A stretch of 64,000 bases of DNA from the NCBI GenBank assembly GCA_016191105.1, contig JACPPH010000002.1, forward strand, positions 141,931 through 205,930. The letters are read 5' to 3'. Position 1 is the stretch's first letter. Every line of letters starts with the position of its first letter. The position numbers were made by a program, and so were the translations under genes. The notes below the pieces were generated by a model. That model made no database searches. It worked only from the letters and a program-made list of their open reading frames with translations, and had not been told where the DNA came from. This DNA comes from Candidatus Saccharimonadota bacterium (lineage in GTDB: Bacteria > Patescibacteriota > Saccharimonadia > CAILAD01 > BJGX01). Shown in pieces: positions 8,676 through 62,413 of the stretch.

Positions 8676-9011
8676 TTAGCTCAACAGGTCTTCGGCCTGA
8701 ATCTCGTTCCAGTAGCCGTCGGGTTGCCCGCGGTAGAAAACTACTTTTGTAGATGTTTCTTCTGGGTCGTAAACATACTGAACGCGATTGGCGCTACCAG
8801 TTTGATGATAAAAAGTTTTCTTATCAATAATTACTGGCCCGGCAATTCGCTCAATCTTATACTTAACATTGTCTTTCTCAAACTCAATACTCTCGACAGT
8901 TCGAGTAAGGTCTTTGTTGTCTTCGAGTGGTTCGGTTTTGCGGTTGGAGTTGTCGATTTGATATTTTTCATCTATCAGATCAATTAACTCGTCCCAGGCA
9001 CGATTGGTCAT
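8676..9011 (-). CDS. hypothetical small protein
   Basis: 111-aa ORF that overlaps the upstream Zn-ribbon gene by 4 nt. No recognisable motif. Confidence 0.4.
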   Translation of the reverse strand: MTNRAWDELIDLIDEKYQIDNSNRKTEPLEDNKDLTRTVESIEFEKDNVKYKIERIAGPVIIDKKTFYHQTGSANRVQYVYDPEETSTKVVFYRGQPDGYWNEIQAEDLLS

Positions 9012-10558
9012 AGGCTGGTAGCAATTTTGATTAATTGGTCTTGGTTCAGACCGCTAGTATTGCCCTCTAGTCTATACCAAGTGCCCTTATTAATCCAGCT
9101 GGCTTGGTTGTTGCCATACATGTATATGGTTAACCCCTGAGCCTGCAAAGCCAGGTAGTTGTCAGATTTCTGAGTCACATAGTTTTCAGCTAAGGCTTGA
9201 GAGTCCCAGTCGGTCTTAGCCTCTTGCACCTGCATCTGCTGACTGCCGTTTGAATTGCTAACATTGTAACTAATAAGTCCTGGACTGGCCTGAATGTCGC
9301 CCGATACCTTCCAGCCTGAGGGCAAATAGTTTGGCAAACTGGCGTTAATACCCGCCTTGCCACTGGCGACTTTAAAAGCCAAGTTTGGATAGTTGATTTG
9401 CCATACATACAATCCAACCACCACCACACCAATTAGGCTTAGAGCCACACTGGCCGGCTTAAGACCAGGCTTTTTCTGCCCGGGCTGAGAATTATTTAAT
9501 TGAGCTATGACGGTTGGCACGCTATTGGGTTTAGGTATAAGGTGAGTCGGCAGCCCCATTTCCACTACTCGGCCTGAGCCAGGTGTCTGCCTGGCATTGG
9601 TTAGTTGGCTATTGGCCCTGGTTGTGGGCGGGAGTATGCTTGGTGGCTGAACAGAATTAACGGCTTTAACTACAGGTGCAGTTTCGGCAGTCGACAGGCC
9701 AGGGCTTAAGGCGCTCAGAGTGTTGTGTTTGGGCGGAATGTACTCCACCCCCGGGCTGGCCGCAGGCCGAATATCGCTCATGACTTTGAGGCTGGACTGG
9801 GACGGTTTGGCGCTGCCCTGAGTGGCTTTGGCTAGTTCATTAAGCTGAGCATCAGAAAAAACAGACTCGTTTTTGGTATCCAACCCCCCCAGCTCACTGC
9901 CGACATTCTCACTCGCAGGGGCTGGATTAGGCTTGGCTAAGTCTAGGTTTTTAATTGGCGCCACCCTCGACACAGTGGGTGCAAATTGAGGTTGGGGAGC
10001 CGACTTTGGAGTCTTTTGACCCTCTAAAAGTCGTTGTAGTGAAGACTCGTCGTGAGCATGCTGGACTTTAGATGTGATTTCTGCAGCCGCCTTGGTTTGA
10101 GGCTGACTTCTGCTGTCGGGCTGGGTCGTTGGGACTACAGCGGGCTGCGGCACTGGCTGTGCTTGGCTGATTGCCGGTTGTTCAGCAGGGTTTGAAGACA
10201 GTGGCTTGGGCGCTCCGGCTGGTTGCTGTGAGCTTGATTGTGCGATAGGTTCTGGCTGTATCGGCTTGGTGCTGCTTACTGCATTGGCCGATGCTGGTTC
10301 GGCCGGTTTTGGCGCAATGACTGTAGATGGGGGTGCAGCCAGGGGAGCTAGGGCAGGCGCTGCTTGGGTGTTGGTACCATCAGCCAGTGGTGCTGTGGCA
10401 GCTTTGACCGCCACATCTGCAACCGGTGCGCCGGAGCTTGCTGTTTGGCTGTCTGTAGTTTGGACGGGCGTACCACAGTTAGCACAAAAAGTCTTACCTG
10501 CAATGGTTATTTGATTGTCGGAACTACAATTTGCACATTGATTCATACTAAAACTCAC
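9008..10558 (-). CDS. Zinc-ribbon membrane protein with a long Pro/Ala/Gln-rich linker and C-terminal extracytoplasmic domain
   Basis: N-terminal CANC...CANCG zinc ribbon, about 350 aa of low-complexity PAQS sequence, one TM helix (LSLIGVVVVGLYVW), and a ~130-aa C-terminal domain. Confidence 0.5.
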   Translation of the reverse strand: MSFSMNQCANCSSDNQITIAGKTFCANCGTPVQTTDSQTASSGAPVADVAVKAATAPLADGTNTQAAPALAPLAAPPSTVIAPKPAEPASANAVSSTKPIQPEPIAQSSSQQPAGAPKPLSSNPAEQPAISQAQPVPQPAVVPTTQPDSRSQPQTKAAAEITSKVQHAHDESSLQRLLEGQKTPKSAPQPQFAPTVSRVAPIKNLDLAKPNPAPASENVGSELGGLDTKNESVFSDAQLNELAKATQGSAKPSQSSLKVMSDIRPAASPGVEYIPPKHNTLSALSPGLSTAETAPVVKAVNSVQPPSILPPTTRANSQLTNARQTPGSGRVVEMGLPTHLIPKPNSVPTVIAQLNNSQPGQKKPGLKPASVALSLIGVVVVGLYVWQINYPNLAFKVASGKAGINASLPNYLPSGWKVSGDIQASPGLISYNVSNSNGSQQMQVQEAKTDWDSQALAENYVTQKSDNYLALQAQGLTIYMYGNNQASWINKGTWYRLEGNTSGLNQDQLIKIATSL

Positions 10559-32206: not shown

Positions 32207-33484
32207 TTACTTCACGTTACGCAAGGCAATTGAGACAGCTTTTTTGCTTTTTCGCAGAGCATATACACTGTAGCTGATACCAGTCATACCAAGCATGCCA
32301 GCCACACCACCCGCAACACCAGTCTGTGGCAAAGTTGTTGGCTGAGACGGTGTAACTGGAGTTACTGGAGGAGGTGTTGGTGTTAGTGGTGTCGGGGTAG
32401 GAGGCTTAGGTGGAGTAAAACTGGCTGTACTACAGACGTCTTCGCGGGTTTCGTTAGAGCCTGTACAGGCAACATTATCAACAGTTGTTACTGTAGCCGG
32501 AATGTTGTCTTTCACCTTAGCCAAAAACTGAATGTTACCATCGGCATTTGGCGAGTAATCACCCACCATCACGCCCTCACGGAACAATGCAGTATCATTT
32601 AGCTGTACGCCTTGGGGTTGGGTCACTAGATACATCTTTACCGACCCAGGCACAATATCAACGTATTGTGGCAATTTATCGGTTACTACCACTTGGCGCA
32701 TAACTGCATTGCCGGTATTCTTGTAGTTGATGTTGTACTTTACAATGTCGCCTGGTTTGGCAGCCATAGTCTTCTGCCAGTTACCGCTACCGGGCACACT
32801 AATTTCTTTGTTTATTTTTAGATTCGATGCAGTCACTTTAACCTTAATGGTCACAAGCAGGCCGTACTGAAAACAGCCCTTGACATTACCGTCGGGGCCA
32901 GTCTCGCCAATTGGTGCACCATCGCCTACAATGCTATCGGCTAGCTTGTAGCCGCCTGGCACACTGTTGGTGTAGGCTGTGGCGCTTCCTTGCTCATACT
33001 CTAAGTTAAAAGGCTGGGTACTTTTTAGATCCACACTAGCAGCCACCGTACCTGGCTGGGCATTGCTAGCTGAAATGTAGCTGATCGAACGTAGCGCCGT
33101 GTCATTGCCGGCTGGCACCAAAATTTTAACTTTGGTGTTGCGAGCAATACCAGCGCCACTAGCGTTCAGGCTAGAATCTGCGCCGTTGTGTACATAAGTA
33201 CGCATCAGCAGCTCTTGGCCTTCACGAACCTGCATGTTATCGGTAAAACCGCCTTCACTAGTGTTAGCGGCGTCTTTTACAGTGTAGAACTCGCGCTCAT
33301 CGCCATAGTTGGGGGTGCCCACAAAGGAGTTAAATGTAACATAGTCAAAGCCAGCCACACCAGGTGTGTACTGCTTAACTGGTCGCTCTGGACTCCAGTC
33401 TGCTACTGCCATGACAGGAACTAAGATCCCAATCACAACAATGCCGATCACAGAGGCCAGCTTACGCAAAACATTCTTTTTCAT
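32207..33484 (-). CDS. LPXTG-anchored surface protein (DUF11-like repeat domain)
   Basis: 425 aa with a signal peptide and a C-terminal LPQTG motif followed by a hydrophobic segment and an RKSKK tail, which is the sortase sorting signal. Confidence 0.7.
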   Translation of the reverse strand: MKKNVLRKLASVIGIVVIGILVPVMAVADWSPERPVKQYTPGVAGFDYVTFNSFVGTPNYGDEREFYTVKDAANTSEGGFTDNMQVREGQELLMRTYVHNGADSSLNASGAGIARNTKVKILVPAGNDTALRSISYISASNAQPGTVAASVDLKSTQPFNLEYEQGSATAYTNSVPGGYKLADSIVGDGAPIGETGPDGNVKGCFQYGLLVTIKVKVTASNLKINKEISVPGSGNWQKTMAAKPGDIVKYNINYKNTGNAVMRQVVVTDKLPQYVDIVPGSVKMYLVTQPQGVQLNDTALFREGVMVGDYSPNADGNIQFLAKVKDNIPATVTTVDNVACTGSNETREDVCSTASFTPPKPPTPTPLTPTPPPVTPVTPSQPTTLPQTGVAGGVAGMLGMTGISYSVYALRKSKKAVSIALRNVK

Positions 33485-33815
33485 AAGCTATAAGCTCCTT
33501 TCATAGAAGTATTAGTTAATTAAATAGCGTTCTCGTTCGGTTGTGTATATGCAATGTAAAAGGACTTTTGTATCTATTGAGCAGTAATGGTACTATATTA
33601 TACGCTTTAAGTCAATAGATAATTGTTATGTTTTTGCAGGGTTTTTCGAAAGGCCCTGAGATCAAGTTTTTTATGAAAGCCTGATCTCAAAGACTTATAG
33701 TTTCGGGTGGGTGTCGTCCCGGAGACCGAAGTCTCCAGGACGAGCGACACCCAAGAGTGGACTCTGTGTGCCATCGCACCGCGAATTGAGTCCGCTAATT
33801 CGCGGTGTTTAAGCC

Positions 33816-35306
33816 CTAGGCGGGCTTGGGCGACGGACCGGGCGGGGCCGTCGTGGGTGGCACCGGCGCCGAGCTGGGCGGCGTTGCCCTGGTGGTGGGC
33901 GGGCTTCCCCCCGGGCACAGCTGCGGACAACCGGTGCTCGGGTTCGGCACTCCTGGATTGATGTCCGGGTTGGGCGGCCTGGGGGTCACCCCACCGCAGC
34001 CACTTGGACCACAGCCTTTCACCGGCGCCGGCACAGCCGGATTGCTGATAGGCTGCTGCTCGGCGATCTTGCCCTGAGGCTTGGTCGTCGGCGTCGTCAC
34101 CGTCGGCGGTGGGATGGTCGGCCCTCCCGTCGGCGGGGGCGTCACCGTCGGCGGTGGGATTGTTGACTCCGGTGGCAGGTTTGGCGGAACCGGCACCTGC
34201 GGCACGTTCGGCGTGGGCTTGAGCGACCCCCTGTTCCCGCACGAGGCGAAGAACATGATGTATGCGTTGTCCTTCCAGAACTTCACGTACAGCCGGGGCG
34301 TGCTGGTGACGTAGTCGAACTGCACCACGGTACCGTTTTGCACGACTGTGTTGTACAGGCGGGTACCCGCTGGCAACACTCCACGTTCCACCATGGAACC
34401 TCGAACGAAGTCCAGCACGATGAACAGATCCCAACCGGCCTTGGCGGCATCGCCGACCGGGCGGGGGTCCTCGTAGGGCTTGTCTTGGCTGGCCATGATG
34501 GTCCGCGCCGCATCGTCCAAGAATGCCGGGCTGCCAACACCCTTCAGGAGCAAGTCGGAGAACATGTCCTCCGGCGTGTTTCCTTGGATGCCGTTGAGCA
34601 CAACACACTTGGTCTCACACGTCACGCCCACTCCCTGTACGAGGCCACGGCGCTGGGCAATCTTCTGAACGAAGATGGCAAGGTCGACGGTGTCGGGCTG
34701 ATGCGGTGGCGCCGTGCTTGGCGGTGTGGTAGCCATAGTTGTTGGCGCAGCTGTGCCTTGCGGTTGTGTCCCGCTCGGTACTGCCGTGGTGGTGGAAGGA
34801 GCCGTGGTGTCGCTGGGCGATGTGCTTGGCGTTGAACCACCCCCGTTGCTGGTGGTGGTAGTGACGCCGGCCAGGATTGCGACGCACTTGGTGTCTGGCG
34901 GGTCCACTCCGAGTTGCTTGAGCTTGTCGGAGCTTTCCTGCACCACCTTGGCGTCGTCGCTGCCAACTCCCTGGCACAACTCGACTGTCAGCTTGAGACA
35001 TTCGGTCGGCGTGATGCCGGCCTCTTGCAGCTTCTTGTCGTCGTCGGAGTTGTTGGTGACTCCGATCCGCTTCTGGCAGTCCTCCAGACTCACCTTGGCC
35101 TTGCGCTCTTCGGTGGTTGCGGGCGGAACAGACGCGGTCGGCGCTGGCACCTGGGTGGTGTCGGAGCCTTGAGGCCCAGGTGATTGCTGGGTTGGTTGGG
35201 CACTCGCAGTGCCGCTTTTGGCTGCAATACCGGCTACACCCACCGCCCCCAAAAGGACAGTGAACACAACCGCGCAAGCAGCGAAGATCGCATGACCCCT
35301 GGTCAT
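33816..35306 (-). CDS. GC-rich block 1: secreted/membrane-anchored Thr/Pro-rich protein with Cys-containing repeat modules
   Basis: Real start is the ATG at 35306 (MTRGHAIFAACAVVFTVLLG...) preceded by AAGGAGGTG; the track's longer ORF adds upstream shadow sequence. It has a signal/TM, T/P-rich linkers, three C-x(25-30)-C modules, and a ~130-aa C-terminal domain of unknown family. GC about 68% with GC3 codons. Confidence 0.5.
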   Translation of the reverse strand: MTRGHAIFAACAVVFTVLLGAVGVAGIAAKSGTASAQPTQQSPGPQGSDTTQVPAPTASVPPATTEERKAKVSLEDCQKRIGVTNNSDDDKKLQEAGITPTECLKLTVELCQGVGSDDAKVVQESSDKLKQLGVDPPDTKCVAILAGVTTTTSNGGGSTPSTSPSDTTAPSTTTAVPSGTQPQGTAAPTTMATTPPSTAPPHQPDTVDLAIFVQKIAQRRGLVQGVGVTCETKCVVLNGIQGNTPEDMFSDLLLKGVGSPAFLDDAARTIMASQDKPYEDPRPVGDAAKAGWDLFIVLDFVRGSMVERGVLPAGTRLYNTVVQNGTVVQFDYVTSTPRLYVKFWKDNAYIMFFASCGNRGSLKPTPNVPQVPVPPNLPPESTIPPPTVTPPPTGGPTIPPPTVTTPTTKPQGKIAEQQPISNPAVPAPVKGCGPSGCGGVTPRPPNPDINPGVPNPSTGCPQLCPGGSPPTTRATPPSSAPVPPTTAPPGPSPKPA

Positions 35307-35529
35307 CCGATCACCTCCTTGTTGTTGTCTGGGTGATGTAAAGCTGCGAACTGGGTGCAGGTTTTCTCTCCTGTACTCAGCCCACATATCAGATTACACT
35401 CTTTTCGTCTATACACAAGTATAAATCTCACATTTGGGTTGAGCGGGTGGCGCCCGGCGGGAACTCGATCCGAAGATCGAAGCTCCCTGCCGGGACCACG
35501 AGGTAGGGGCCAGAACGTCATCCTGACCG

Positions 35530-36006
35530 CTACTTTGTGCCGTGCTTGAACAGCGCCGTGCAGCCGATGATGCCACCGATCACAAACGGGGCAAGAAATG
35601 CCACGATCCGTGGCCCGCCTGCGTCCGTGAGCATGGCAGCCACGACTGCACTGCAGATTGCTGCGAACACCGTTGCAAAGCAGCCCATGAGCACGCCCAC
35701 AAGGATGTGGAGGCTCTTGCCATTGGCTGGGTCTGCGCCGCCGCCAGCGGGTGGCGGCGGTGTGGCGGCATTGGCCGATGGATCGCGTGTGAGGAACCAG
35801 AAGGTCCCCCCTGCGCCACCCAGGCCAACCACCAGGGCGGTGAGGAATCCATACAGCCACGACCAATTGAGTCCTGCGACTACAAGGGTCACGAGCAGCA
35901 GGACTCCGCCAATCACCCCGCTGATGATCAGCTGGGTTTGCTGGTCGAGCCCACCTCCGGGCGATGGGGCCGGCGCGGCATAGCGCGCACGGTTGAAACC
36001 AGGCAT
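35530..36006 (-). CDS. GC-rich block 1: small 4-TM membrane protein
   Basis: About 158 aa from the ATG at 36006 (ribosome-binding site AAGAAGGTGGG). Four hydrophobic helices and a Pro/Gly/Ala-rich loop. Followed by a nested hairpin at 35459-35500. Confidence 0.45.
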   Translation of the reverse strand: MPGFNRARYAAPAPSPGGGLDQQTQLIISGVIGGVLLLVTLVVAGLNWSWLYGFLTALVVGLGGAGGTFWFLTRDPSANAATPPPPAGGGADPANGKSLHILVGVLMGCFATVFAAICSAVVAAMLTDAGGPRIVAFLAPFVIGGIIGCTALFKHGTK

Positions 36007-36029
36007 AATGCCCACCTTCTTTCGTATAT

Positions 36030-36107
36030 GTTCGGGAGCGGTACCTGGTCGTGAACTTCATTGTTCATGTGCCCTCACGGGGGCAATATACCAGGATAGC
36101 GATCCTG
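36030..36107 (-). repeat. Copy 1 of a conserved ~76-bp upstream element (promoter/5'UTR) before the 4-TM gene
   Basis: About 90% identical to 36471-36545. Shares an invariant 25-mer GGCAATATACCAGGATAGCGATCCT and an embedded 7-bp-stem hairpin. It is positioned about -15 to -90 relative to the start codon. Confidence 0.6.
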
Positions 36108-36179
36108 AAATTGTGGGTCACGAGCGGCCGCGCTCCGGGGTAAACCGGAGCACAGCCTCTCGCGTGGCGAGATCACGTG

Positions 36180-36454
36180 AGCACTTGGTCGATGATCTCG
36201 AGCATTGCGGCCTTGAACGCCTTGTTGGCATCTTCGTCCACAACGTCCGGGAAGGACTTCAAGAAGTCGGGGCCACAGAGGTCGATCATGGCCTGCACGC
36301 CTTCCTTGTTGAACTTGACCGTGCCGCCGCCGCTGATCTCCAGTTGCTCGAGAGCAACCTTCTGCAGCAGCTCCAGGGCGCGGGCCTTCATGGCCGGGTC
36401 GGCGTCGGCTGTTGCCGACTTGGACTTCTCGTAGCGGTCTTTGCTGAACGCCAT
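36180..36454 (-). CDS. GC-rich block 1: 91-aa all-helical protein of unknown function
   Basis: ATG at 36454 preceded by CAGGAGAA: MAFSKDRYEKSKSATADADPAMKARALELLQKV...LEIIDQVLT*. No WXG or other known motif. Confidence 0.45.
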
Positions 36455-36470
36455 GATGATTCTCCTGCAT

Positions 36471-36545
36471 GTTCGTGAGCGGTACCTGGTCGCGAACCGA
36501 AGTTCACGTGCCCTCACAGGGGCAATATACCAGGATAGCGATCCT
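36471..36545 (-). repeat. Copy 2 of the conserved ~76-bp upstream element before the 91-aa gene
   Basis: Aligns to 36030-36107 with a 2-nt indel in the hairpin loop. The stem shows a compensatory change (A-C mismatch in copy 1, G-C in copy 2). The loop is TTCG in the transcribed orientation. Confidence 0.6.
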
Positions 36546-36570
36546 AACATTCTGTTGAGTTGGCCGGGGA

Positions 36571-36599
36571 GCTCCGCTGCACACAGTGTGCAGCGGAGC
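36571..36599 (-). terminator. GC-rich hairpin terminator after the J-domain-like gene
   Basis: GCTCCGCTGCACA-CAG-TGTGCAGCGGAGC has a perfect 13-bp stem. A second 7-bp hairpin TTTACCG-CTC-CGGTAAA follows. Confidence 0.5.
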
Positions 36600-36626
36600 C
36601 AACCCCGTTTACCGCTCCCGGTAAAT

Positions 36627-37874
36627 CTAGTCGTCGGCGAAGACCTCCTCGATGATGTCGAAGAACGCGGCGTAGAACACGTCGCGATCGGACTCGAAGT
36701 CACCGTTGGGATACTTCTCGAGGTAGAGGTTGAGGGCGCAGAACGCCACATCGGTGATCCCTTCCTCACTGAACGACCATGGCTTGCGAAGCGGGTCGCG
36801 CGCCCACATGCCGACGGGTGTGCGCTCGATGCACTGCTTGGCTGTCGCCACACGCGCGTCGAAGTTCGGTGGCCGAACATTGGAGCGTTGCTGTCCCGAA
36901 GGACCGCCGCGCGAACCAGCACCCGAACCACTGCTACCACCCGGTCGACTCGACGAGCCGCCACTGGCGCCAGCACCCGACCCGGACTTGGGCCGTGCGC
37001 CTCTGCCAGAGGAGCCACCTTGCGAGCCGCGTGGTCGTTGCCCATTGCCGCCGTTGCGAACGAAGATCCCCTCGAGATTCTCTCGAGTGATGTCGTCGTT
37101 CCGGTCCGGATGGGCAAACGCCAAGACGCTTCGCCAGCAGAACTTGGCCCACTTCTTGCGGTCGCCGTAGGTGAACTTCTCGCCCTTCGGGTCCACCTTG
37201 CGAGCCTCGGCCTCGAAGATCACCATGATCTGGGTCATCCAACCCCGGTACTGGCGATACAAGTCCTGCTCTTCTGGTGTACGACGCGCGAAGGCGGTGA
37301 AGCGCGCCAGGTTGTCGTCGTCTCGTGGTGGCGCGCCGAACTCGGCATGCAAACCCTGGACACCCGAGAAGTTCTCGCGGATGCCAGAGATCGCGGTGTT
37401 CAGCTCTGTGATCTCTCGATCGTTCATGTCGTCTCCCTCCTGGGGGTCTTTGGTTCCCCCCGGAGGGGATGTAGGTTCTGGTTCTTCTGCAAGATCGAGC
37501 ATGAGCGTGACGATGCCACGCTTAACCATCTCGAAGCTGGCGTTGGCTTTGCGTGTCGCGTTGAGGTTGACCCCAACAATCCGACGCACGAGCCGCCACG
37601 GCTCGGGGTCTTGCTCGGTCGCTTGTACGGGTATGCCTTGTGCTTCGAGCCATGGCACCCAGTCTTCGTAGGAAAGGGTTGGCTCGGGGTCTTCGCCTTC
37701 TGGTGGTGTGTCACCTGCCCCTGAATCTTCAAGGACTTTACCAAGTGCCACCAAGAAGTCTTCTTCACCCACCTGTCCGTCATCGGCAAGCTTGTCGCCC
37801 AGTTCAACAATGAGCTTGGGCTTAAGGTCGATCGAAACTTCCAGGTCAGCACATAGCGTTTCGAGATGCGGCAT
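36627..37874 (-). CDS. GC-rich block 1: J-domain-like (HPD motif) protein with acidic N-terminus and Gly/Ser/Arg-rich linker
   Basis: 415 aa; ATG at 37874 with a GGAGGGAAG ribosome-binding site. The segment KKWAKFCWRSVLAFAHPDRNDDITRENLEGIF matches the J-domain helix II-HPD-helix III. It is followed by an NGGNGQRPRGSQGGSSGRG... linker and a C-terminal domain of unknown family. Confidence 0.5.
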   Translation of the reverse strand: MPHLETLCADLEVSIDLKPKLIVELGDKLADDGQVGEEDFLVALGKVLEDSGAGDTPPEGEDPEPTLSYEDWVPWLEAQGIPVQATEQDPEPWRLVRRIVGVNLNATRKANASFEMVKRGIVTLMLDLAEEPEPTSPPGGTKDPQEGDDMNDREITELNTAISGIRENFSGVQGLHAEFGAPPRDDDNLARFTAFARRTPEEQDLYRQYRGWMTQIMVIFEAEARKVDPKGEKFTYGDRKKWAKFCWRSVLAFAHPDRNDDITRENLEGIFVRNGGNGQRPRGSQGGSSGRGARPKSGSGAGASGGSSSRPGGSSGSGAGSRGGPSGQQRSNVRPPNFDARVATAKQCIERTPVGMWARDPLRKPWSFSEEGITDVAFCALNLYLEKYPNGDFESDRDVFYAAFFDIIEEVFADD

Positions 37875-37912
37875 TGCTTCCCTCCTCGGGTAGTGCCCCG
37901 GGAGGGGCGTCT

Positions 37913-38009
37913 TGTTTACTGTTACCTACAGGAGCCTGCGTACGGCATTCAATCTTGGGCGGCAAGATCGCTTACACGTACACAGGTGCCTGTAGGCAGT
38001 TTGTAAACT
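37913..38009. repeat. ~95-bp imperfect palindrome with reiterated CCTACAGG/CCTGTAGG/GTAGGCAG motifs at the block 1 boundary
   Basis: Left arm TGTTTACTGTTACCTACAGGAGCCTGCGTACGG and right arm CGTACACAGGTGCCTGTAGGCAGTTTGTAAACT, centred on AATCTTGGGCGGCAAGATCG. The motif recurs at 38055-38062. The GC content drops to backbone level right after it. Confidence 0.55.
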
Positions 38010-38163
38010 AAAAAGCAGGTAAAATAGCCTGTTCTATACGAACAAGCAACCCTCCTGCCTACTTATTTAGGGAGCGGATATTTCAAATTGAACGATCCAT
38101 AGCCTAAGCTATGAACTCGGAAACAATATACTACAAAACTATCGTTTTGTCAAGTATTTTCTA

Positions 38164-38511
38164 CTATTTTTGGTATTCAGCTCGTAGTGCTTTTCGAGCT
38201 TCAGATACGTCTTCGAACAGCTCGGTTTTCATGCGCCTAATCTCTTCGGCTACAATTGCCTGGTAGTCGAGTACATGATCGTTCAGGTATTGCCCCACCT
38301 TGGTGTCATCACCTGCATCCATTAACACTACAAGCTCGTTAAGCTCAGTCTCGGTTAAGGCATCTATAATTCGAACCGCCAACCTGTTCTGAACAATCTC
38401 GGCCATAGTATCCAGCAGTTCAGCCTTTTGTTCATCCGAAACAGCTTCGATCCCCAGCTCTTTAAAAAGTACAACCCCAAATTGATCTGTTGGGATTTTT
38501 TGATTGTCCAT
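38164..38511 (-). CDS. hypothetical acidic helical protein
   Basis: 115-aa ORF with backbone GC, directly downstream of the 459-aa gene. Confidence 0.4.
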   Translation of the reverse strand: MDNQKIPTDQFGVVLFKELGIEAVSDEQKAELLDTMAEIVQNRLAVRIIDALTETELNELVVLMDAGDDTKVGQYLNDHVLDYQAIVAEEIRRMKTELFEDVSEARKALRAEYQK

Positions 38512-38513
38512 TG

Positions 38514-39893
38514 TTACTTTTTCTCCTTATCTTTCTTATCTTTGCGTCGTTTTTGAATAATAAACTCAGCCAAACCAAAGCCACCGGCCACAGCCGAAGC
38601 ACTTACGGCATTTGGCACCTCGCCGGCCAACGATACGCCCGCAACCGCCGCTGAGCCTATTAAGCCCAACCCTACAGACGTAGCTATCTTATACCGATTA
38701 CCTCTACCCTGTTTGGCCGCCTCTTTACTCTCCGATTCCAGCTCGTAATTTAGGGCCTTGCCTACAATATTTGCAACCTCCCTAGGTTTGTTGTTATAAA
38801 TCCAGTTTTCTATGCCGCCTACCTGAGATGGTTTTATACCGCTACCCCTCGTTCTGGCAAGCTCATTCTCGGCCTTTTGCATGTTTAAAAGCATAAGCTG
38901 AACTTCTTGGGGCAGCTCCTGGCCAGTGGTGGCGTTATTAATAAAGGCCTGAGCCTCAGGGCTTAAGGTCTCTCCAGGGACATTGTTAACCCTATATACA
39001 AATGTGTCGAGTACAGCCTTGCCGGAGGCATTGTTTTCTGACAGTATCTTATTGAGATCTTTCTGGAGGTTCTTTTCTTTGCGGCCCTCTCGAACTGTTT
39101 CCTGTCCTCTATCTATATTGCCCCTGGCAGCCATATATCCTCCTAAGCCAATCATGGCCGGAGCAGGTGCAAAGCCCAACATGGTGGCCCCAACCCCACC
39201 TACCATCAACCCTATACCAAGGCCTACCCTTAGCCCAGGGTGTCGGGCTAGGAATGCTCCCGCTCTACCACCTTTGCGGGCCGCCTTGGCAGCGGTTTCG
39301 GACTTAGCTCTCTCGCAGCGCTCATTTGCAACCATCATCAACAGCTGAACCTGGGTCTCGGGCTTTTCCAAGACTTCTAAATTGTTTCGGTTTACCAGCT
39401 CTTTCATATTTTGTTTCACCTGGTTTTGCAGCTCCTGATTATATTGAGCTTCGGCATCTAAAATGTCCTGCTTACCAAAGCCCAGCCATCTGGCAAAAAC
39501 TGACTTTTGTTTTTCCCTGGCCACAGCAAGGGTATTTCTGGCTTTTTCTAGATCGGTCAGCTTGGGGTCGGTTGCAAACTCTTTATCTCTCTGGGTAGCC
39601 CAATCAAAAACCTTGTTGCCACCACGAAATATACTCTCTGCAGCGTTCTTTACGCCCCTGCCAAGCTCTTTACCGACTGTTTTGGTGGCATCAACTATCT
39701 TGCCAACATCCATCGAGCCCTCGTCGCCCCGTAATCTCGAAGAAGAGGCAGCTTCAGACTCGGCACGCATGTTTTTTAGGTCATCATAGACGTTTGAGCT
39801 GGCGCCAGAGTCACTAGACTTTTCACCAGAATCCTTTGGCCCAAAATTTACGTTATAATTTCCAGGCGAACTGCTGTATGCTTCAGCACTCAT
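38514..39893 (-). CDS. Membrane-associated coiled-coil protein with Lys-rich C-terminus
   Basis: 459 aa with a central hydrophobic Gly-rich segment, a C-terminal TM, and a KRRKDKKDKEKK tail. Confidence 0.45.
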   Translation of the reverse strand: MSAEAYSSSPGNYNVNFGPKDSGEKSSDSGASSNVYDDLKNMRAESEAASSSRLRGDEGSMDVGKIVDATKTVGKELGRGVKNAAESIFRGGNKVFDWATQRDKEFATDPKLTDLEKARNTLAVAREKQKSVFARWLGFGKQDILDAEAQYNQELQNQVKQNMKELVNRNNLEVLEKPETQVQLLMMVANERCERAKSETAAKAARKGGRAGAFLARHPGLRVGLGIGLMVGGVGATMLGFAPAPAMIGLGGYMAARGNIDRGQETVREGRKEKNLQKDLNKILSENNASGKAVLDTFVYRVNNVPGETLSPEAQAFINNATTGQELPQEVQLMLLNMQKAENELARTRGSGIKPSQVGGIENWIYNNKPREVANIVGKALNYELESESKEAAKQGRGNRYKIATSVGLGLIGSAAVAGVSLAGEVPNAVSASAVAGGFGLAEFIIQKRRKDKKDKEKK

Positions 39894-54345: not shown

Positions 54346-54567
54346 GCGCATCCACCCCCAAGTTTCAGTGCGCATAATTCAAAAATATCCAAATTGTTTT
54401 TCTGCCAACGTTGGATCATGTAATTATAGTGTAACAAGCTACAAGGGCTGGTACTAGATAAAATCAGGTTTAAATTGCGTAGAAATGAAGAAGGGGCCCG
54501 AAGACCAGTGGTCGCGATGATCTCGCGAACCCCTTCTTCAGACCCCTGTGGGGACTGTCCCGTGCTA

Positions 54568-55374
54568 CTAGTCCGACCAGACTTCCGGTGCGCTGTGCCG
54601 GGTTTGCCGGGCGCCATGCCAGTCGGTCTCGAGCAGAACCCGATTGCTGGCCAAGTTCCACTCCAGACGAGGAACCCCCACCCATGTGCCGTCTGGCAGG
54701 CAGAGCTCATAGCCAGCCATCTCGACGTAGGGCAGACGCTTGCCATCCTGCTGCTGAAGCAGCTTGGGGTGGTAGGCGTAGGCCGCCAAGACCTCAGCGT
54801 GGGCCAAGTTCCTGGACTTCTTCTCGGATCGCTGACAGATGTTGCCAACCATCCGACCTTTCGAGGGCTCCCAGTTCGCCAACAGATCGATGTGGACCAG
54901 GTGGATGCCCCGCTCGTAGTTGCACGCAGAGGAGTTGAGACGGAGATGATCCGCATCGGCGCACATACGTTCGGCACGAGTGTTGTCATGATCAACGCGG
55001 ATCACTCGCCACCACGTCTCGAAGGTGGCATCGGGCGAGCCGAGGTCGACATAGAGCAGCAACAGGTCGTCGATCTGTTGCGCATGCTCCAGATCGTCCT
55101 CACTGAAGACACGCTCGAAGTCCTCGTCGCTGAGGGCGTAGTTCCAATACCCGGCGTTGTATTCACGCAGGAGCGCCATCTGCTCATGGATTGTCAACAG
55201 CTGAGCGTTGTAGCGGTCATACAGGCCCTCAACCGAGAACTTGCCGTCCACCAGAGCTTGCAGCCCCGCGATTGCCTCGTCAGCTGGACGCTTGCCACTC
55301 TTGACGAATTCGAAGAGGCGGTTGTACACCACCCCCAGGTCGCCGAGCTCCTGTCGTGTAGCTCTCTTGGCCAT
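54568..55374 (-). CDS. GC-rich block 2: 268-aa protein of unknown function
   Basis: ATG at 55374 after AAAGGAGG. About 65% GC with GC3 codons. Helical N-terminus and an alpha/beta C-terminal domain with a conserved His (GIHLVHIDLLANWEP). A nested hairpin GAAGAAGGGG...CCCCTTCTTC (54487-54539) lies downstream. Confidence 0.5.
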   Translation of the reverse strand: MAKRATRQELGDLGVVYNRLFEFVKSGKRPADEAIAGLQALVDGKFSVEGLYDRYNAQLLTIHEQMALLREYNAGYWNYALSDEDFERVFSEDDLEHAQQIDDLLLLYVDLGSPDATFETWWRVIRVDHDNTRAERMCADADHLRLNSSACNYERGIHLVHIDLLANWEPSKGRMVGNICQRSEKKSRNLAHAEVLAAYAYHPKLLQQQDGKRLPYVEMAGYELCLPDGTWVGVPRLEWNLASNRVLLETDWHGARQTRHSAPEVWSD

Positions 55375-55503
55375 CTTAATGGCCTCCTTTGCCGGTGTTC
55401 ATCCACGCTTACACTGTGTCGTGCATCGTGGTCTCAAGCCTCAGCTTGAGAGCGGCGCTTTATAGTTAAAAACGTTAACCACCATGCTTCTGTCAAGGTC
55501 TTG

Positions 55504-60481: not shown

Positions 60482-60680
60482 ATTTCTCCTTGATAGCCTC
60501 GCTGCAGTATCCCAGTTGGGAGGAGCTTGCTGCAGGTGCGTGATTTAATACATTTAAGTGCAATAATTGTAACAGATAGGCTTAAGATGGTCAAAAGCTT
60601 CATAAAATGACGAAAGCCCCCGGCGAGGGAGTCAGAGACTCTCGTCGAGGGCTGTTGGTGTTCTTCGAGCTCGAGTGGGC

Positions 60681-61163
60681 TCAGGCCGGCACGAGGAGTT
60701 CGAATTCCTGAGTGACCGGGTTAAACCGGCGGAGGTTCTCGAGCTTTGGAACCTCGGGGAGGAGCTCGAGCGTGCCGGGCGGAAGACGAATGTTGTCCGC
60801 CGAGATCAGCACGAAGTCCATGAAGATCATCTTGTAGTCACCCAAGGGGCGCACAAGCTCTTCGAGACGCTTCGAGTGACCATCTCCCTCATCGAACAGG
60901 TTGAGGAAGGCATAGGCCCGAGACTGGCGCTGCGAAAGCAGAGGGGATCCTTCTCGCCGAACGCGACCAAGCTCCTTGGTGAAGGCGCCATAGTCATCGA
61001 TCCCCAGCGGGATAACGAAGCCCATTTGGCCCGAGTTCTCAGGGTTCCTCTCAGGATCAAACCCCAACCCGAACACGAACACCGCGCCGAAGGTCACGGC
61101 AACGAACCTCGCCACTGCGTACCCTTCATGCTCGCCTTGGCGGCGAAATTGCTGTGGCTCCAT
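60681..61163 (-). CDS. GC-rich block 3a: 160-aa protein of unknown function
   Basis: ATG at 61163 after GAAAGGGG. About 65% GC. A hairpin with a T-tract (60622-60660) lies downstream. No motif recognised. Confidence 0.45.
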   Translation of the reverse strand: MEPQQFRRQGEHEGYAVARFVAVTFGAVFVFGLGFDPERNPENSGQMGFVIPLGIDDYGAFTKELGRVRREGSPLLSQRQSRAYAFLNLFDEGDGHSKRLEELVRPLGDYKMIFMDFVLISADNIRLPPGTLELLPEVPKLENLRRFNPVTQEFELLVPA

Positions 61164-61206
61164 TGGGGAACCCCTTTCTGTCGAAGATCAGAAACACAGT
61201 ATACCA

Positions 61207-61497
61207 CTAACGGTGTTGCTTGTCAATGGTACTTAATGCCTCCCAGATTACATCAAATTTGGCCTGGAGATCGGCTCGATACCAATCAGGGCGCTTAGAG
61301 GCCCAACAGAACTGGTCGACCGCTACAATCCAGCACATCTGGAGCTGTGTTTGGGACAGTACTTTACACGCAGTCTGTGCAAAAACCTCCCACAGAGGCT
61401 CTAATTCACCCAAAGGGCAGGTTTTACGCAGCACCGACTTCAGTTCTCGCTTTCCAGGAAGCTTAACCTGGTCCATATCAAAACTGCTCACTTTCAC
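61207..61497 (-). CDS. Small Trp/Cys-rich hypothetical protein (mid-GC segment between blocks 3a and 3b)
   Basis: 96-aa ORF with a GTG/ATG start. A TATAAT sits at about 61520. GC is about 50%, unlike the flanking GC-rich blocks. Weak support. Confidence 0.3.
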   Translation of the reverse strand: MKVSSFDMDQVKLPGKRELKSVLRKTCPLGELEPLWEVFAQTACKVLSQTQLQMCWIVAVDQFCWASKRPDWYRADLQAKFDVIWEALSTIDKQHR

Positions 61498-61548
61498 TCC
61501 GCCGGGAATGAGTGTGACAGTAAGATTATACTCCTAAAATGGCAAATG

Positions 61549-61564
61549 CCCCCAGAACTGGGGG
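61549..61564 (-). terminator. Rho-independent terminator after the block 3b gene
   Basis: CCCCCAG-AA-CTGGGGG with a 7-bp GC stem, followed on the transcribed strand by CATTTGCCATTTT. Confidence 0.55.
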
Positions 61565-61593
61565 CGTCTGCCTCCATCCTGAGGGCTTGCGTA

Positions 61594-62295
61594 CTAGTCG
61601 AGCCTTGTCATGATGCCCGTCGGATCCAGCCGCTCGAGCGCAGCAGTTACCGCCACAGCCTTTGCCACCATTTCGCCGCCTCGGGCAACGCGGCTTTGGC
61701 CGGTACTGCCAACGGCCTTAGTAACCGAATTGACCAGGCAGAAGCCTGGGTGGCTAGAGCCCAGGTTGGGGTTCTTGTCACGTTCAGCGTCTTCATAGAT
61801 CAACTCCAGGAGCCGGTCGTCAGAGACCACCTCGAAGTTTATCTTGGTCACTATCTCGGTAACTGCAGTCCTGTTGTGGTCGAAGCCCGCCTGATTGTCC
61901 ACGTCGGTCGTGTACTCAAACTCCAACATCAACAGATTGCCCGACTGCAGCATCCAGAAGCTTCGGTATTTCTTGGCCTCACGAAAGTGATGCTCAACAA
62001 GCAAGATCGCCCTCGTCGAAAGCATCTCGCTCTGCAGGAAGCTGTCGTCGTAGACCCGCTGGGCGACGTTTCGGAATTGGTATGAACCAGCGCCCGGACG
62101 TTCCCAAAGGTGCTTCTTGATTGCCTCTGGCTTCATGGTGACATACTCCATGTGTGGCCCGAGGTCGTGCAGCCACAGCAGCACGAAGTCGTGCCACTCC
62201 TCTGGAGTGACTTCGGCGGGCGGGATGTATTCACCGCCGCGCATTACGGCTCGGCGAACCGCGGCCTTCACTTCTGGCCTGTTGGACGAATCCAT
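61594..62295 (-). CDS. GC-rich block 3b: 233-aa protein of unknown function
   Basis: The likely start is the ATG at 62295 (MDSSNRPEV...) preceded by AAAGGAGCC; the track's longer ORF begins in upstream shadow sequence. About 62% GC. No motif recognised. Confidence 0.45.
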   Translation of the reverse strand: MDSSNRPEVKAAVRRAVMRGGEYIPPAEVTPEEWHDFVLLWLHDLGPHMEYVTMKPEAIKKHLWERPGAGSYQFRNVAQRVYDDSFLQSEMLSTRAILLVEHHFREAKKYRSFWMLQSGNLLMLEFEYTTDVDNQAGFDHNRTAVTEIVTKINFEVVSDDRLLELIYEDAERDKNPNLGSSHPGFCLVNSVTKAVGSTGQSRVARGGEMVAKAVAVTAALERLDPTGIMTRLD

Positions 62296-62413
62296 TGCCA
62301 GGCTCCTTTGCTGTACCTTGGGGCGTACCCCTACCAGTATCGTTGCGTCGTCGCAGGTTTGCGACAATCAAGCTAATTGAACCATTAGCGGAGTTCATAT
62401 GCAAACGTAACAG

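Follow-up and report, generated by a model that had tools for sequence, protein, structure and literature searches.

The GC-rich block at positions 33,700–38,010 of the window (the whole 64-kb stretch of DNA that was analysed) is, with a probability of about 55%, this genome's version of a resident, replaceable and hypervariable islet, which adjoins the gene of a sortase-anchored CLIPPER/DUF11 adhesin of Saccharibacteria and probably forms a functional pair with it. In many genomes that are only distantly related, the slot of this islet extends from a conserved AT-rich promoter or leader to the adhesin promoter, and the whole islet, spacers included, has about 60–67% GC regardless of the GC content of the backbone (40–54%).

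The block has a GC content of 0.616 compared to 0.472 in the remaining window; no other 4.3-kb stretch of the window is as rich in GC (mean 0.482, sd 0.034). The first-pass annotation had put it at about 68%, which is too high: only the part at 33.8–34.0 kb reaches 72–76%. Its value of about 47% for the backbone agrees with the measurement, and the abrupt changes that it placed near 33.70 and 38.00 kb are seen in 100-nt windows, where GC goes from 0.33 to 0.60 and then 0.76 over 33.6–33.9 kb at the left edge, and from 0.56 to 0.38 over 37.9–38.1 kb at the right edge. The GC content at third codon positions (GC3) is 0.70–0.85 in the four genes of the block and 0.45–0.53 in backbone genes, and that of the intergenic spacers is 0.54–0.60 within the block and 0.32–0.37 immediately outside. 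The block is compositionally foreign to the chromosome, as had been proposed, and its codons are GC3-rich, but nothing links them to Actinobacteria in particular. Also in line with the earlier reading, there is no tRNA within 25–45 kb, and none of the genes called between 26.6 and 47.9 kb has an integrase or transposase domain; no flanking direct repeats were seen in the sequence read at the edges. The same 64-kb window contains two more GC-rich orphan islets, which have the same codon regime as the block.

The gene upstream of the block encodes a DUF5663 protein of 115 aa (38,164–38,511, minus strand; Pfam PF18908, E 3.5e-13) and has backbone composition (GC3 0.45); such a gene also precedes the islet in loci L005, L016, L017, L042 and L046. 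It is followed by a conserved sigma-70-type promoter (38,125–38,153, minus strand; TTGACA-17-TATATT, 11 of 12 matches), which is predicted to drive the islet leader and the first gene. This promoter can be aligned with those of L005, L007 and L008, and similar TTGACAAA...TAGTA promoters are found ahead of the islet in L015–L017. The 251-nt leader is strongly structured as a whole (z = −8.9). Its fold includes a terminator-like hairpin followed by a U-run (38,013–38,060, minus strand), whose motif AAAGCAGGAGGGTG...CCTGCTTTTT is kept in L005, L007 and L008; a search of Rfam gave no match to this hairpin, which is possibly an attenuator or the end of a small RNA. The GC-rich edge is marked by a long imperfect hairpin of about 95 nt (37,914–38,008, minus strand; inverted repeat I3), whose apical loop is CCGCCC; when four genomes are folded to a consensus, it comprises 24 pairs, and compensatory changes are seen in 9 of them. 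In both the minimum-free-energy and the centroid structures of the leader, a third hairpin (37,880–37,906, minus strand) pairs CCCCUCCC with the Shine-Dalgarno sequence of the first gene, GGAGGG, and may be involved in translational control. The expression of the first gene would be set by this structured leader, through the terminator-like hairpin, the long conserved hairpin and the hairpin that sequesters the Shine-Dalgarno sequence.

The block contains four genes, all on the minus strand (g1 to g4; 415, 93, 158 and 496 aa). A GGAGG-type ribosome-binding site can be read ahead of each, and downstream of each there is a hairpin of very high stability (−38.6 to −57.7 kcal/mol, z −5.3 to −6.4) that lacks a U-run. 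The four genes, their ribosome-binding sites and the hairpins had been recognized in the first-pass annotation, whose descriptions of the individual proteins fared unevenly. The product of g1 (36,627–37,874, minus strand; HYX70_01155; GC of 0.66/0.47/0.70 at codon positions 1/2/3) is an orphan, acidic (pI 4.7) and cytoplasmic, which contains a Gly/Ser-rich linker. It matches only itself among 5.77 billion proteins and nothing in Pfam, NCBIfam or PADLOC, and its sole match in PHROG is weak (phrog_11232, of unknown function, E 0.042). It had been called J-domain-like, but its resemblance to DnaJ is limited to the pentapeptide HPDRN, there is no match to the DnaJ family of Pfam and the AlphaFold model is unusable (pLDDT 42). 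Two stacked hairpins without a U-tail follow g1 (36,565–36,626, minus strand; −45.5 kcal/mol, z −6.1; 14-nt perfect inverted repeat I15). An 88-nt module, a putative promoter with its 5′UTR, is present twice: copy 2, upstream of g2 (36,469–36,554, minus strand; direct repeats D1 and D6), has the extended −10 element TGGTATATT, and copy 1 lies upstream of g3 (36,028–36,115, minus strand). The copies are 91–93% identical and share the same 26-nt core, which neither the rest of the window nor any of the other loci contains.

The second gene, g2 (36,173–36,454, minus strand; GC3 0.85), encodes an acidic and probably helical orphan of 93 aa, rather than the 91 aa first counted; a 93-aa gene was also called in the Logan assembly. 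Family libraries gave no match to g2, and when g2 and g3 were searched together against 5.8 billion proteins the only match was g3 itself. The hairpin after g2 (36,119–36,164, minus strand; −38.6 kcal/mol, z −6.4) has no U-tail either, nor do those after g3 (35,447–35,528, minus strand; −51.5 kcal/mol, z −5.3). The membrane protein encoded by g3 (35,530–36,006, minus strand; HYX70_01145; pI 9.0) has about four hydrophobic segments according to its hydropathy, as expected for the 4-TM protein described earlier; a 252-aa ORF called by Logan overlaps g3 and has a non-coding GC pattern (0.64/0.61/0.55). g1 is unrelated to the "A" proteins of other islets, and g1–g3 as a set are unrelated to their A and B proteins (hhalign probability <10%).

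Family alignments show the layout of the protein encoded by g4 (33,816–35,306, minus strand; HYX70_01140): after a signal-like N-terminus comes a helical module that contains Cys, then a Thr-rich linker leads to a globular domain, whose end reads ...YIMFFASCGN..., and the tail is rich in Pro and Thr and has paired cysteines. Its composition (15% Pro, 12% Thr, 12 Cys) and its N-terminal hydrophobic signal-like segment bear out the description of a secreted Thr/Pro-rich Cys-module protein. A profile of the C2 subfamily, from which g4 was left out, gives 16.1 bits for its globular part (bias 0, E 4.7e-7), and none of 1000 shuffled sequences scored above 10.0 bits; over the full length, the score against a profile without g4 is 35 bits, with a bias of 35. 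Judging from these scores, g4 belongs, as a divergent member, to the C family, and its position and architecture are the same as in 15 other loci. This small family of secreted proteins, with a Cys-containing domain and a Pro/Thr-rich tail, always supplies the last islet gene, immediately ahead of the adhesin gene. An exhaustive search for the C family yielded 120 clusters at E ≤ 1e-3; Candidatus Saccharibacteria is the sole organism name that they carry, and all members whose context was read adjoin a CLIPPER gene. Structure predictions for islet proteins are of low confidence (pLDDT 42 and 35), and no family library gave a meaningful match to these proteins. After g4, two strong hairpins without a U-tail (33,703–33,814, minus strand; −57.7 kcal/mol, z −6.2), one of which is a 13-bp stem with a UUCG loop, form the GC-rich left edge, beyond which GC falls to 0.33.

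The partner gene (32,207–33,484, minus strand) has backbone composition and encodes a surface protein of 425 aa with a DUF11/CLIPPER-type domain (Pfam DUF7619, DUF7507, DUF11) and an LPQTG sortase signal. In all 16 tabulated loci (the window and 15 from other assemblies), the gene next downstream of the islet is of this adhesin type (LPxTG/CLIPPER). The block had been regarded as a single insertion, for which relatives would show an empty site. Instead, the relatives L005, L006, L007 and L008, whose PrfB is 59–61% identical, have a GC-rich islet at the same slot, and one is present directly upstream of the LPxTG/CLIPPER gene in L015–L019, L021, L025, L029, L042, L046, L049 and L051. The islet has 62–72% GC against 44–51% in L005, L007 and L008, and 51–71% against about 42% in L006, L015 and L016. 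The same block with backbone-like composition, which the first-pass annotation had named as contrary evidence, is not what these relatives carry; theirs is an analogous block, and likewise GC-rich. The last islet gene, C, has a GC content of 0.59–0.67 in 15 of the 16 loci, compared to 0.40–0.54 in the rest of each locus; the islet enrichment is slight in L024, and L047 has a C homologue with a backbone-like GC3 of 0.43. The islet is linked to the adhesin gene and not to prfB, which is convergent in L015–L019 and L042–L046; the neighbourhoods of L049 and L051 differ again. The genes ahead of C vary by lineage and encode small membrane or acidic cytoplasmic proteins without detectable relatives, and the protein sequences of islet genes diverge fast. 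The codon usage (RSCU) of the window islet correlates with that of the L015 and L046 islets (r 0.58–0.82), versus 0.08–0.26 with the backbone.

The synonymous divergence of islet genes is 2–4 times lower than that of adjacent housekeeping genes and phylogenetically discordant; dS was estimated at 70–220 four-fold sites, a simple Jukes-Cantor correction was applied, and the backbone values are close to saturation. In L016, L042 and L046, gene A has a dS of 0.31–0.46 despite an amino-acid identity of 0.70–0.73, compared to 0.91–1.39 for prfB in the same pairs and 1.07 for secA between L042 and L046; the L042 adhesin gene is at 1.13–1.25 from those of L016 and L046. In the second clade, dS between L005 and L007/L008 is at least 2 for prfB, 0.57–0.62 for the adhesin gene and 0.9–1.0 for the C tail, and between L007 and L008 it is 0.10 for a membrane-protein gene, 0.46 for prfB and 0.81 for the C head (72% amino-acid identity). 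Lower and discordant synonymous divergence indicates that DNA at the islet locus moves horizontally among Saccharibacteria, as far as can be judged from these comparisons, which concern the islets of other lineages, g1–g3 of the window having no relatives. If synonymous sites of GC-rich genes were under strong constraint, dS could be depressed without transfer, but this would not yield a discordant order. In aquifer Patescibacteria, most detected gene transfers stay within Patescibacteria (PMC12455944).

The sharp compositional edges, taken alone, would fit a chimeric assembly in which an actinobacterial fragment was joined into a Saccharibacteria contig, an alternative raised in the first-pass annotation that is very unlikely. 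Over 21,248 nt that include both junctions, the sequence matches the Logan assembly of SRR12113392 with 100% identity, so that the NCBI MAG and Logan contigs, both from the same sample, agree exactly. The architecture recurs in assemblies of other samples, with SPAdes-style NODE_, MEGAHIT-style k141_, JGI and Logan contig names; the g1 leader is homologous to that of relatives, the family of the last gene occupies this position in the 15 other loci, and a chimera would require two precise joins at transcription-unit boundaries. It is also improbable that the block is the remnant of an integrated, site-targeting Saccharibacteria mobile element (prophage, plasmid or integrative element) with a GC-rich composition of its own. 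The cassette-like units with separate promoters and terminators, the duplicated 88-nt module, the long conserved hairpin at one edge and the two other orphan islets of the same codon regime speak for such an element. However, genes for integrase, relaxase, replication and phage structure are absent, as are a tRNA and, in the edges read, direct repeats; beyond the weak PHROG match, PADLOC found nothing, IMG/VR contigs contain no relatives, and the islet appears to be transcribed from a conserved backbone promoter.

Two other explanations, both unlikely, bear on the origin of the composition. According to one, a vertically resident islet that recombines within the phylum keeps its composition locally, either by GC-biased gene conversion at a recombination hot spot or by selection that favours GC-rich codons or stably folded mRNA (e.g., limiting or timing translation in an AT-adapted cell). 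It would account for the high GC of C in 15 of 16 loci despite AT-richer backbones and deep divergence, and it is consistent with the clear evidence of recombination and with the polarised changes in gene C, where S→W and W→S are in balance (21 vs 20; implied equilibrium GC3 0.68); GC-rich messages are reported to be disfavoured by the codon usage of Patescibacteria, so GC-rich codons could brake expression. But codon selection leaves the GC-rich spacers unaccounted for, gene A and the C tail are losing GC (57–62 S→W against 22–28 W→S at third positions of gene A, 10 against 2 in the C tail), and the L047 homologue is of ordinary composition. The neighbouring adhesin gene recombines and is nevertheless GC3-poor, so a simple link between recombination and high GC, as in biased gene conversion, fails. 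The same net GC loss fits the decay of GC-rich imports, and the low dS across lineages fits recent draws from a shared pool, as would be expected if GC-rich hosts (Actinomycetota or others) or their mobile elements were the ultimate source, with repeated re-import at a recombination-prone slot from donors that are unsampled or too diverged. The 60–67% GC, with GC3 reaching 0.89, the high GC of the spacers and the stable hairpins that lack a U-tail point the same way; stable terminators without a U-tail are common in high-GC Gram-positives. The known hosts of Saccharibacteria are GC-rich (10.64898/2026.06.21.733656). Yet the actinobacterial or actinophage donor that had been suggested at first found no backing: neither g1–g4 nor the C family has a homologue in named Actinobacteria (5.8 billion proteins; 1.84 billion representatives), tblastn returned nothing from 50,697 phage records (INPHARED, rich in actinophages) or 72,556 plasmid records (PLSDB), three scans of IMG/VR found nothing, and a domain search in alternative frames gave no match. 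In addition, the C family adjoins a Saccharibacteria-type adhesin gene in every context read, and no strong sign of transfer from Actinomyces was seen in TM7x (McLean et al. 2020, PMC7427843).

For the resident islet paired with the adhesin gene, which is the reading that we favour, the GC-richness most likely stems from a pool of genes under a compositional regime of its own, be it an unseen reservoir of GC-rich alleles or a process that favours GC locally; no reservoir that supplies islet alleles was found. The islet products would act at the cell envelope with the adhesin (e.g., in host-cell recognition, attachment specificity or the evasion of hosts or phages), and islet alleles would be swapped between Saccharibacteria lineages through recombination in the conserved flanks. 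Such swapping would resemble that of the O-antigen and capsule loci and of the "replacement" flexible genomic islands.

The best-supported reading of the GC-rich block at 33,700–38,010 is that it is this genome's allele of a resident, replaceable and hypervariable islet, which is paired with an adhesin gene. The GC content of the block is 61.6%, compared to 47.2% in the remaining window, and no other 4.3-kb stretch of the window is as GC-rich. Its edges are sharp: in 100-nt windows, GC goes from 0.33 to 0.60 and then 0.76 over 33.6–33.9 kb at the left edge, and from 0.56 to 0.38 over 37.9–38.1 kb at the right edge. Four minus-strand genes fill the block: g1 (36627–37874, 415 aa, locus tag HYX70_01155 in the NCBI MAG), g2 (36173–36454, 93 aa), g3 (35530–36006, 158 aa, HYX70_01145) and g4 (33816–35306, 496 aa, HYX70_01140). 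Their GC3 is 0.70–0.85, against 0.45–0.53 in backbone genes, and their codon-position GC pattern is that expected for real genes. A 252-aa ORF which one gene caller placed over g3 has a non-coding codon-position pattern. The spacers within the block are also GC-rich (0.54–0.60, against 0.32–0.37 immediately outside).

A GGAGG-type ribosome-binding site precedes each of the four genes, and after each there is a hairpin of very high stability (−38.6 to −57.7 kcal/mol, z −5.3 to −6.4) that lacks a U-tail. An 88-nt promoter/5′UTR module with an extended −10 element occurs in two copies that are 91–93% identical, at 36,028–36,115 (before g3) and 36,469–36,554 (before g2). The 26-nt core of this module, GGATCGCTATCCTGGTATATTGCCCC, is identical in both copies and includes a short palindrome, AGGAT-N4-ATCCT, which overlaps the extended −10 element. 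Neither the module nor its core occurs in any other locus compared, and both are particular to this genome.

The product of g4 has an N-terminal, signal-like hydrophobic segment, 15% Pro, 12% Thr and 12 Cys. The product of g3 has about four hydrophobic segments, while those of g1 and g2 are acidic, soluble and cytoplasmic-looking. From the sequence alone, the signal-like and transmembrane-like segments suggest that some islet products may be directed to the envelope. The first-pass annotation had described much of this: composition changing sharply near 33.70 and 38.00 kb, four minus-strand genes each with its own ribosome-binding site and GC hairpin, a secreted Thr/Pro-rich Cys protein and a 4-TM protein. 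These features are largely borne out. The GC content of about 68% that it gave applies to the left end of the block, not to the block as a whole. The "J-domain-like" label attached to g1 comes down to the pentapeptide HPDRN and was dropped for lack of support. The HPD motif is at residues 255–257, with helices on both sides in a model whose pLDDT is 42. Pfam gives no J-domain match at E ≤ 0.1 (PF00226), the BLASTP alignment with the J domain of E. coli DnaJ consists of HPDRN only, and the PDB sequence-search matches of g1 include no J-domain protein.

The composition of the block looks foreign, as had been noted: GC and GC3 deviate from those of the chromosome and the codon usage (RSCU) of the islet does not correlate with that of the backbone (r 0.08–0.26). 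The correlation is 0.58–0.82 with islets of other genomes and 0.63–0.77 with two other GC-rich islets of the same window. The hallmarks of mobility expected of a genomic island are not seen. There is no tRNA within 25–45 kb and no integrase- or transposase-like Pfam domain among the genes called at 26.6–47.9 kb, in agreement with the first-pass annotation, and inspection of the sequence at the block edges reveals no flanking direct repeats.

The second GC-rich islet of the window, at 54,470–55,480, consists of a single orphan gene of 268 aa (54568–55374, minus strand, GC3 0.77), flanked by mreB and a membrane-protein gene. The gene comes with a promoter-like AT-rich region and a hairpin terminator of its own. 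Its codon usage agrees with that of the main islet (r 0.63–0.67) and not with that of the backbone (r 0.06), and neither Pfam nor PADLOC gives a match. The third, at about 60,600–62,400 between rpsB and an ABC-transporter gene, has minus-strand genes at 60681–61163, 61207–61497 and 61594–62367: orphan genes of 160 and 257 aa (GC3 0.73 for both) surround a 96-aa ORF of ordinary composition, and the codon regime is that of the main islet. Since these two islets share this regime, GC-rich orphan cassettes may form a genome-wide class. The minus-strand gene at 9008–10558, whose 516-aa product has a zinc-ribbon-like N-terminus and a long Pro/Ala/Gln-rich region, was considered and rejected as an islet: despite 55–57% GC and a strong GC skew, its GC3 is 0.49, which indicates that the enrichment comes from amino-acid composition.

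The block is very unlikely to be an artefact of a chimeric assembly, an explanation that had been put forward for its composition. The Logan assembly of SRR12113392 includes a 54.6-kb contig which is 100% identical over 21,248 nt, through both junctions; it comes from the same sample as the NCBI MAG and is therefore only partly independent of it. This MAG, named Candidatus Saccharibacteria bacterium, carries g1, g3 and g4 on a 214-kb contig. The same architecture is found in 15 further loci, from other samples and assemblers.

Comparison loci from other Saccharibacteria genomes and from further genome and metagenome assemblies (handles L003 to L051) also show what the slot looks like elsewhere. 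Species-representative genomes were scanned with PrfB, and the Saccharibacteria loci returned are only 59–61% identical in this protein. In L005, a DUF5663 gene is followed by a 2.3-kb stretch of 62–72% GC, a gene for an LPxTG surface protein and prfB, in a backbone of about 48% GC. L007 and L008 have the same arrangement; in L006 the GC-rich stretch is mosaic, spans 3 kb or more and holds at least five genes. L003, rearranged and lacking a GC-rich stretch beside prfB, does not represent an empty site. When metagenomes were scanned with a surface-protein alignment, 27 loci were obtained, and in every one that has enough upstream DNA, a GC-rich stretch adjoins the surface-protein gene. The islet GC is 51–71% in L015 and L016 (about 42% around it), 50–56% in L017 (41%), 62–64% in L021 (about 50%), 58–66% in L025 (42%) and 57–67% in L029 (46%), and a GC-rich stretch is also present in L018 and L019. 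In L015–L019 prfB is convergent, which indicates that the islet travels with the surface-protein gene and not with prfB. Loci that were reached through relatives of the last islet protein follow the pattern. L042–L045, whose sequences are identical, and L046 have a GC3 of 0.61–0.70 in the islet, against 0.27–0.39 in the backbone. L049 has one islet gene, of GC3 0.89, and in L051, on a 1.02-Mb contig with a different neighbourhood, the islet has 61–68% GC.

Overall, the GC content of the last islet gene is 0.59–0.67 in 15 of the 16 tabulated loci, in DNA of 0.40–0.54. The islet of L024 is barely GC-enriched. The one clear exception to the rule of GC-richness is L047 (3063–4913 in GCA_040384225.1), where a gene for a 616-aa homologue of the last islet protein lies upstream of a CLIPPER/PKD gene and has a backbone-like GC3 of 0.43; it would be a useful control lineage. 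A one-off insertion, as first proposed, would leave an empty syntenic site in relatives; instead, L005, L006, L007, L008, L015, L016, L042, L046 and others hold GC-rich islets.

The neighbour of the islet is a DUF11/CLIPPER-type protein with an LPQTG signal (domain naming from Pfam), encoded at 32207–33484 on the minus strand in the window, and is probably a sortase-anchored adhesin stalk. In the window and in 15 other loci, the gene directly upstream of and co-oriented with this adhesin gene codes for a member of the same secreted family, here called C. The C proteins have a signal-like N-terminus or anchor and a Cys-containing domain which closes with a hydrophobic strand and CG[NF]; beyond it come a PGVP-like turn and a Pro/Thr-rich tail that carries paired Cys. 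A word-indexed search detects five members, and an exhaustive profile search of 1.84 billion representatives yields 120 clusters (E ≤ 1e-3). The family divides into two subfamilies, C1 (...LDCGFQPV...) and C2 (...RCGN.V....). In the window, g4 has the signal or anchor, Cys domain and tail of the family. The C1 profile does not detect it, and the C2 profile, built with g4 left out, matches its globular part with 16.1 bits (bias 0, E 4.7e-7); none of 1000 shuffled controls exceeds 10.0 bits. From this profile match, its position and its architecture, g4 is classified as a divergent C2 member.

What lies ahead of C varies from one genome to the next. L015, L016, L042 and L046 have a large acidic protein (A) and a coiled-coil membrane protein (B), L005 a B-like protein, L007 and L008 two small paralogous membrane proteins, and the window g1–g3. 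Homology of g1–g3 with the A and B proteins of other islets was rejected (hhalign probability below 10%). The position is conserved and the C gene constant, while the companions vary: the same slot between conserved flanks holds different genes in the window, L005, L006, L007/L008, L015, L016, L042 and L046. In L006, two adjacent genes (2895–3767 and 3780–4307) encode secreted Pro/Gly/Ser-rich proteins that both end with a Cys-pair motif followed by VDLDQ or VDLNQ, perhaps a common signal for sorting or processing at the C-terminus. The gene upstream of DUF5663 codes for a product with low-complexity and transmembrane regions whose length is very variable: 459 aa in the window (38514–39893), 728 aa in L005 (3412–5598), 1636 aa in L007 (939–5849), 1629 aa in L008 (977–5866) and 860 aa in L042 (2934–5516). 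Perhaps all of the DNA around the adhesin gene is a variable surface region.

Downstream of the DUF5663 gene, the islet is preceded by a near-consensus promoter, TTGACA-17-TATATT (38153–38125, minus strand), which is homologous to those of L005, L007 and L008 and resembles the pre-islet promoters of L015–L017. This promoter is followed by a 251-nt leader with an unusual degree of structure (z −8.9). Three hairpins were recognized in it: one is terminator-like and has a U-run; another, about 95 nt long, has a stem that covaries from genome to genome (compensatory changes in 9 of 24 pairs) and a conserved CCGCCC loop; the third is predicted to sequester the ribosome-binding site of g1. The promoter and leader region spans 37,875–38,153 (minus strand) in the window, 5990–6385 in L005, 5845–6210 in L007 and 5865–6225 in L008. 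No Rfam family corresponds to the leader, which is a candidate attenuator or riboregulator. The islet is thus connected to a control region that is both conserved and resident, and this speaks against a recent foreign insertion as well as against a chimera.

The first-pass annotation named an actinobacterial host as an obvious donor if the backbone is that of a Saccharibacteria-like epibiont. Among 5.8 billion proteins, g1 searched alone and g2 and g3 searched jointly match only themselves, and exact-protein look-ups of g1 and the DUF5663 flank return the same sample only. No match of g1–g4 in Pfam, PHROGs, NCBIfam or PADLOC exceeds the threshold. Pfam gives no match for ten alternative-frame ORFs of the block, which could have revealed a donor gene read in another frame, and nothing meaningful for the proteins of the second and third islets and of the relatives' islets. 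With concatenated islet proteins, tblastn finds no match in 50,697 phage records (INPHARED) or 72,556 plasmid records (PLSDB). Scans of IMG/VR with g1, a C protein and an A protein yield no relatives, and Rfam gives no family over 33.3–38.4 kb at E ≤ 1. Matches of the C family carry a single organism name, Candidatus Saccharibacteria, or the label "hypothetical protein", and all those whose context was inspected lie in CLIPPER-adhesin neighbourhoods. Thus, nothing points to Actinomycetota or their phages, and the proposed donor finds no support. A prophage or an integrative element was also considered and rejected: the sole PHROGs match of g1–g4 is weak (E 0.042), and PADLOC, NCBIfam and IMG/VR give none. 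AlphaFold2 models of g1 (single sequence, pLDDT 41.8) and of the g4 domain (6-sequence alignment, pLDDT 35.3) are unusable.

The synonymous divergence of the islet genes is low and discordant with that of the chromosome. The dS values are crude, as they were calculated from 70–220 four-fold degenerate sites with a Jukes-Cantor correction and with the backbone near saturation. For prfB, dS is 0.91 (L016–L046), 1.26 (L016–L042) and 1.39 (L046–L042); for secA it is 1.07 for L046–L042, the one pair with a value. For the same three pairs, in the same order, dS is 0.46, 0.31 and 0.44 for gene A, 0.44, 0.89 and 0.91 for gene C, and 0.24, 1.13 and 1.25 for the adhesin gene. The A proteins are only 70–73% identical, yet the four-fold sites of their genes are 66–74% identical, compared to 34–38% expected by chance when codon-family usage is allowed for. 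Segments of the locus therefore have histories that differ from, and are younger than, that of the chromosome, and their proteins change fast. Similarly, between L005 and L007/L008, prfB is saturated (dS ≥ 2), the adhesin gene has a dS of 0.57–0.62 and the C tail 0.9–1.0, and the C heads are non-homologous. Between L007 and L008, dS is 0.46 for prfB, 0.10 for a membrane-protein gene, 0.27 for the C tail and 0.81 for the C head, whose amino-acid identity is 72%.

This discordant ordering cannot be explained by rate differences alone. The dS evidence supports recombination between lineages at the islet locus without being final, given a simple estimator and few sites. The exchange is demonstrated in lineages other than that of the window, because g1–g3 have no relatives. 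Islet segments would be exchanged among Saccharibacteria lineages, presumably by recombination through the conserved flanks, and expression of the islet would be controlled by the leader. The products would probably work at the envelope together with the adhesin, with a putative role at the surface or in host interaction.

How the islet comes to be GC-rich has several candidate explanations. It could be imported repeatedly from an unseen GC-rich pool, made of hosts or of a mobile element; a local process could favour GC; or the two could be combined. In the literature, no strong sign of transfer from Actinomyces to TM7x was reported (McLean et al. 2020, PMC7427843), and in a survey of aquifer Patescibacteria most transfers are within the phylum (PMC12455944). 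The picture from polarised substitutions is mixed. Third-position changes in gene A amount to 57–62 S→W and 22–28 W→S, a net loss of GC, and the implied equilibrium GC3 is 0.54–0.62, against 0.77 at present. The C tail also loses GC (10 S→W, 2 W→S), and gene C is balanced (21 and 20 changes). The GC3 of the adhesin gene (32207–33484 in the window, 10319–11872 in L042, 10387–11661 in L046 and about 8000–9300 in L015/L016) is below that of the backbone in several genomes (0.27–0.30, against 0.35–0.42). As its synonymous divergence is lower than that of prfB, the adhesin gene also appears to recombine, with the opposite compositional deviation; that a recombining gene is GC3-poor weakens simple biased gene conversion.

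A bolder explanation, which we regard as highly improbable, concerns all three GC-rich orphan islets of the window. They would be a dispersed class of cassettes kept in the codon and signal dialect of GC-rich hosts, by capture from host DNA or by host-coupled expression. The cassettes might be taken continually from host DNA that the epibiont takes up, depend for their expression on a supply of host-derived tRNAs or nucleotides, or be passed to the host as genes or messages, comparable to Agrobacterium T-DNA with its plant-type signals. If so, the pairing with the adhesin would link attachment to host-dependent expression. The codon usage of Patescibacteria is described as complementary to that of their GC-rich hosts (2026 preprint, 10.64898/2026.06.21.733656); against that background, host-like codon usage at a conserved locus is all the more curious.

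The replaceable islet matters in several respects. Saccharibacteria spend their lives attached to other bacteria, and the way in which particular hosts are recognized and held is largely unexplained. The locus beside their main sortase-anchored adhesin gene is conserved and very fast-evolving, and is a candidate determinant of host interaction. It can be located in any genome as a GC-rich islet whose last gene belongs to the C family and immediately precedes a CLIPPER/LPxTG gene, and no description of such an islet was found in the full-text literature searched. Except in L024 and L047, it is 15–25 percentage points above the chromosome in GC across deep divergence, with no visible donor. Solving this puzzle bears on how bacterial composition is set, by a hidden gene pool, biased gene conversion or message selection. 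In practice, composition-based binning and contamination filters could wrongly clip the islet from MAGs, and composition-based callers of horizontal transfer will flag it as a recent foreign insertion.

Like a classical acquired genomic island, the block has sharp edges in composition, contains orphan genes and shows evidence of having moved horizontally. Unlike such an island, it has no integrase, tRNA, direct repeats or identifiable donor, its slot is GC-rich rather than empty in relatives, and it lies behind a conserved resident promoter. Its short, unrelated orphan genes, which lie in a row in one orientation with an imperfect inverted repeat after each, recall the cassette arrays of integrons, but the islet cassettes have their own promoters. 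An integron array was rejected, as Pfam reveals no IntI-type domain among the genes at 26.6–47.9 kb and the hairpins inspected lack RYYYAAC/GTTRRRY attC ends.

The sortase loci of Gram-positive bacteria contain pilin or adhesin genes with adjacent genes for accessory secreted proteins. The C–adhesin pair is similar, with a secreted protein that has a Pro/Thr-rich wall-spanning tail encoded upstream of an LPxTG protein, and an adhesin stalk domain of isopeptide type (CLIPPER/DUF11 in Pfam naming). It differs in that the C protein lacks an LPxTG signal, there is no neighbouring sortase gene, and the base composition of the partner gene is wholly different from that of the adhesin gene.

Among known kinds, the islet comes nearest to the replacement flexible genomic island, or hypervariable surface locus, of which the O-antigen (rfb) and capsule (cps) loci and the marine "metagenomic islands" are familiar cases. 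The resemblance lies in a fixed chromosomal slot between conserved flanking genes, a gene content that varies between related genomes, a composition unlike that of the chromosome, products that are probably directed to the envelope, and exchange between lineages, which shows in a divergence that is low and discordant. Compared to O-antigen and capsule-type loci, the GC content of the islet is higher rather than lower, and small orphan membrane, secreted or acidic proteins take the place of glycosyltransferases and other enzymes. Unlike in replacement islands, the slot is conserved over a very deep divergence (PrfB about 60% identical) and not just between strains, each islet gene in the window is its own promoter–terminator cassette, and one family, C, is kept as a constant anchor beside the gene of the sortase-anchored adhesin.
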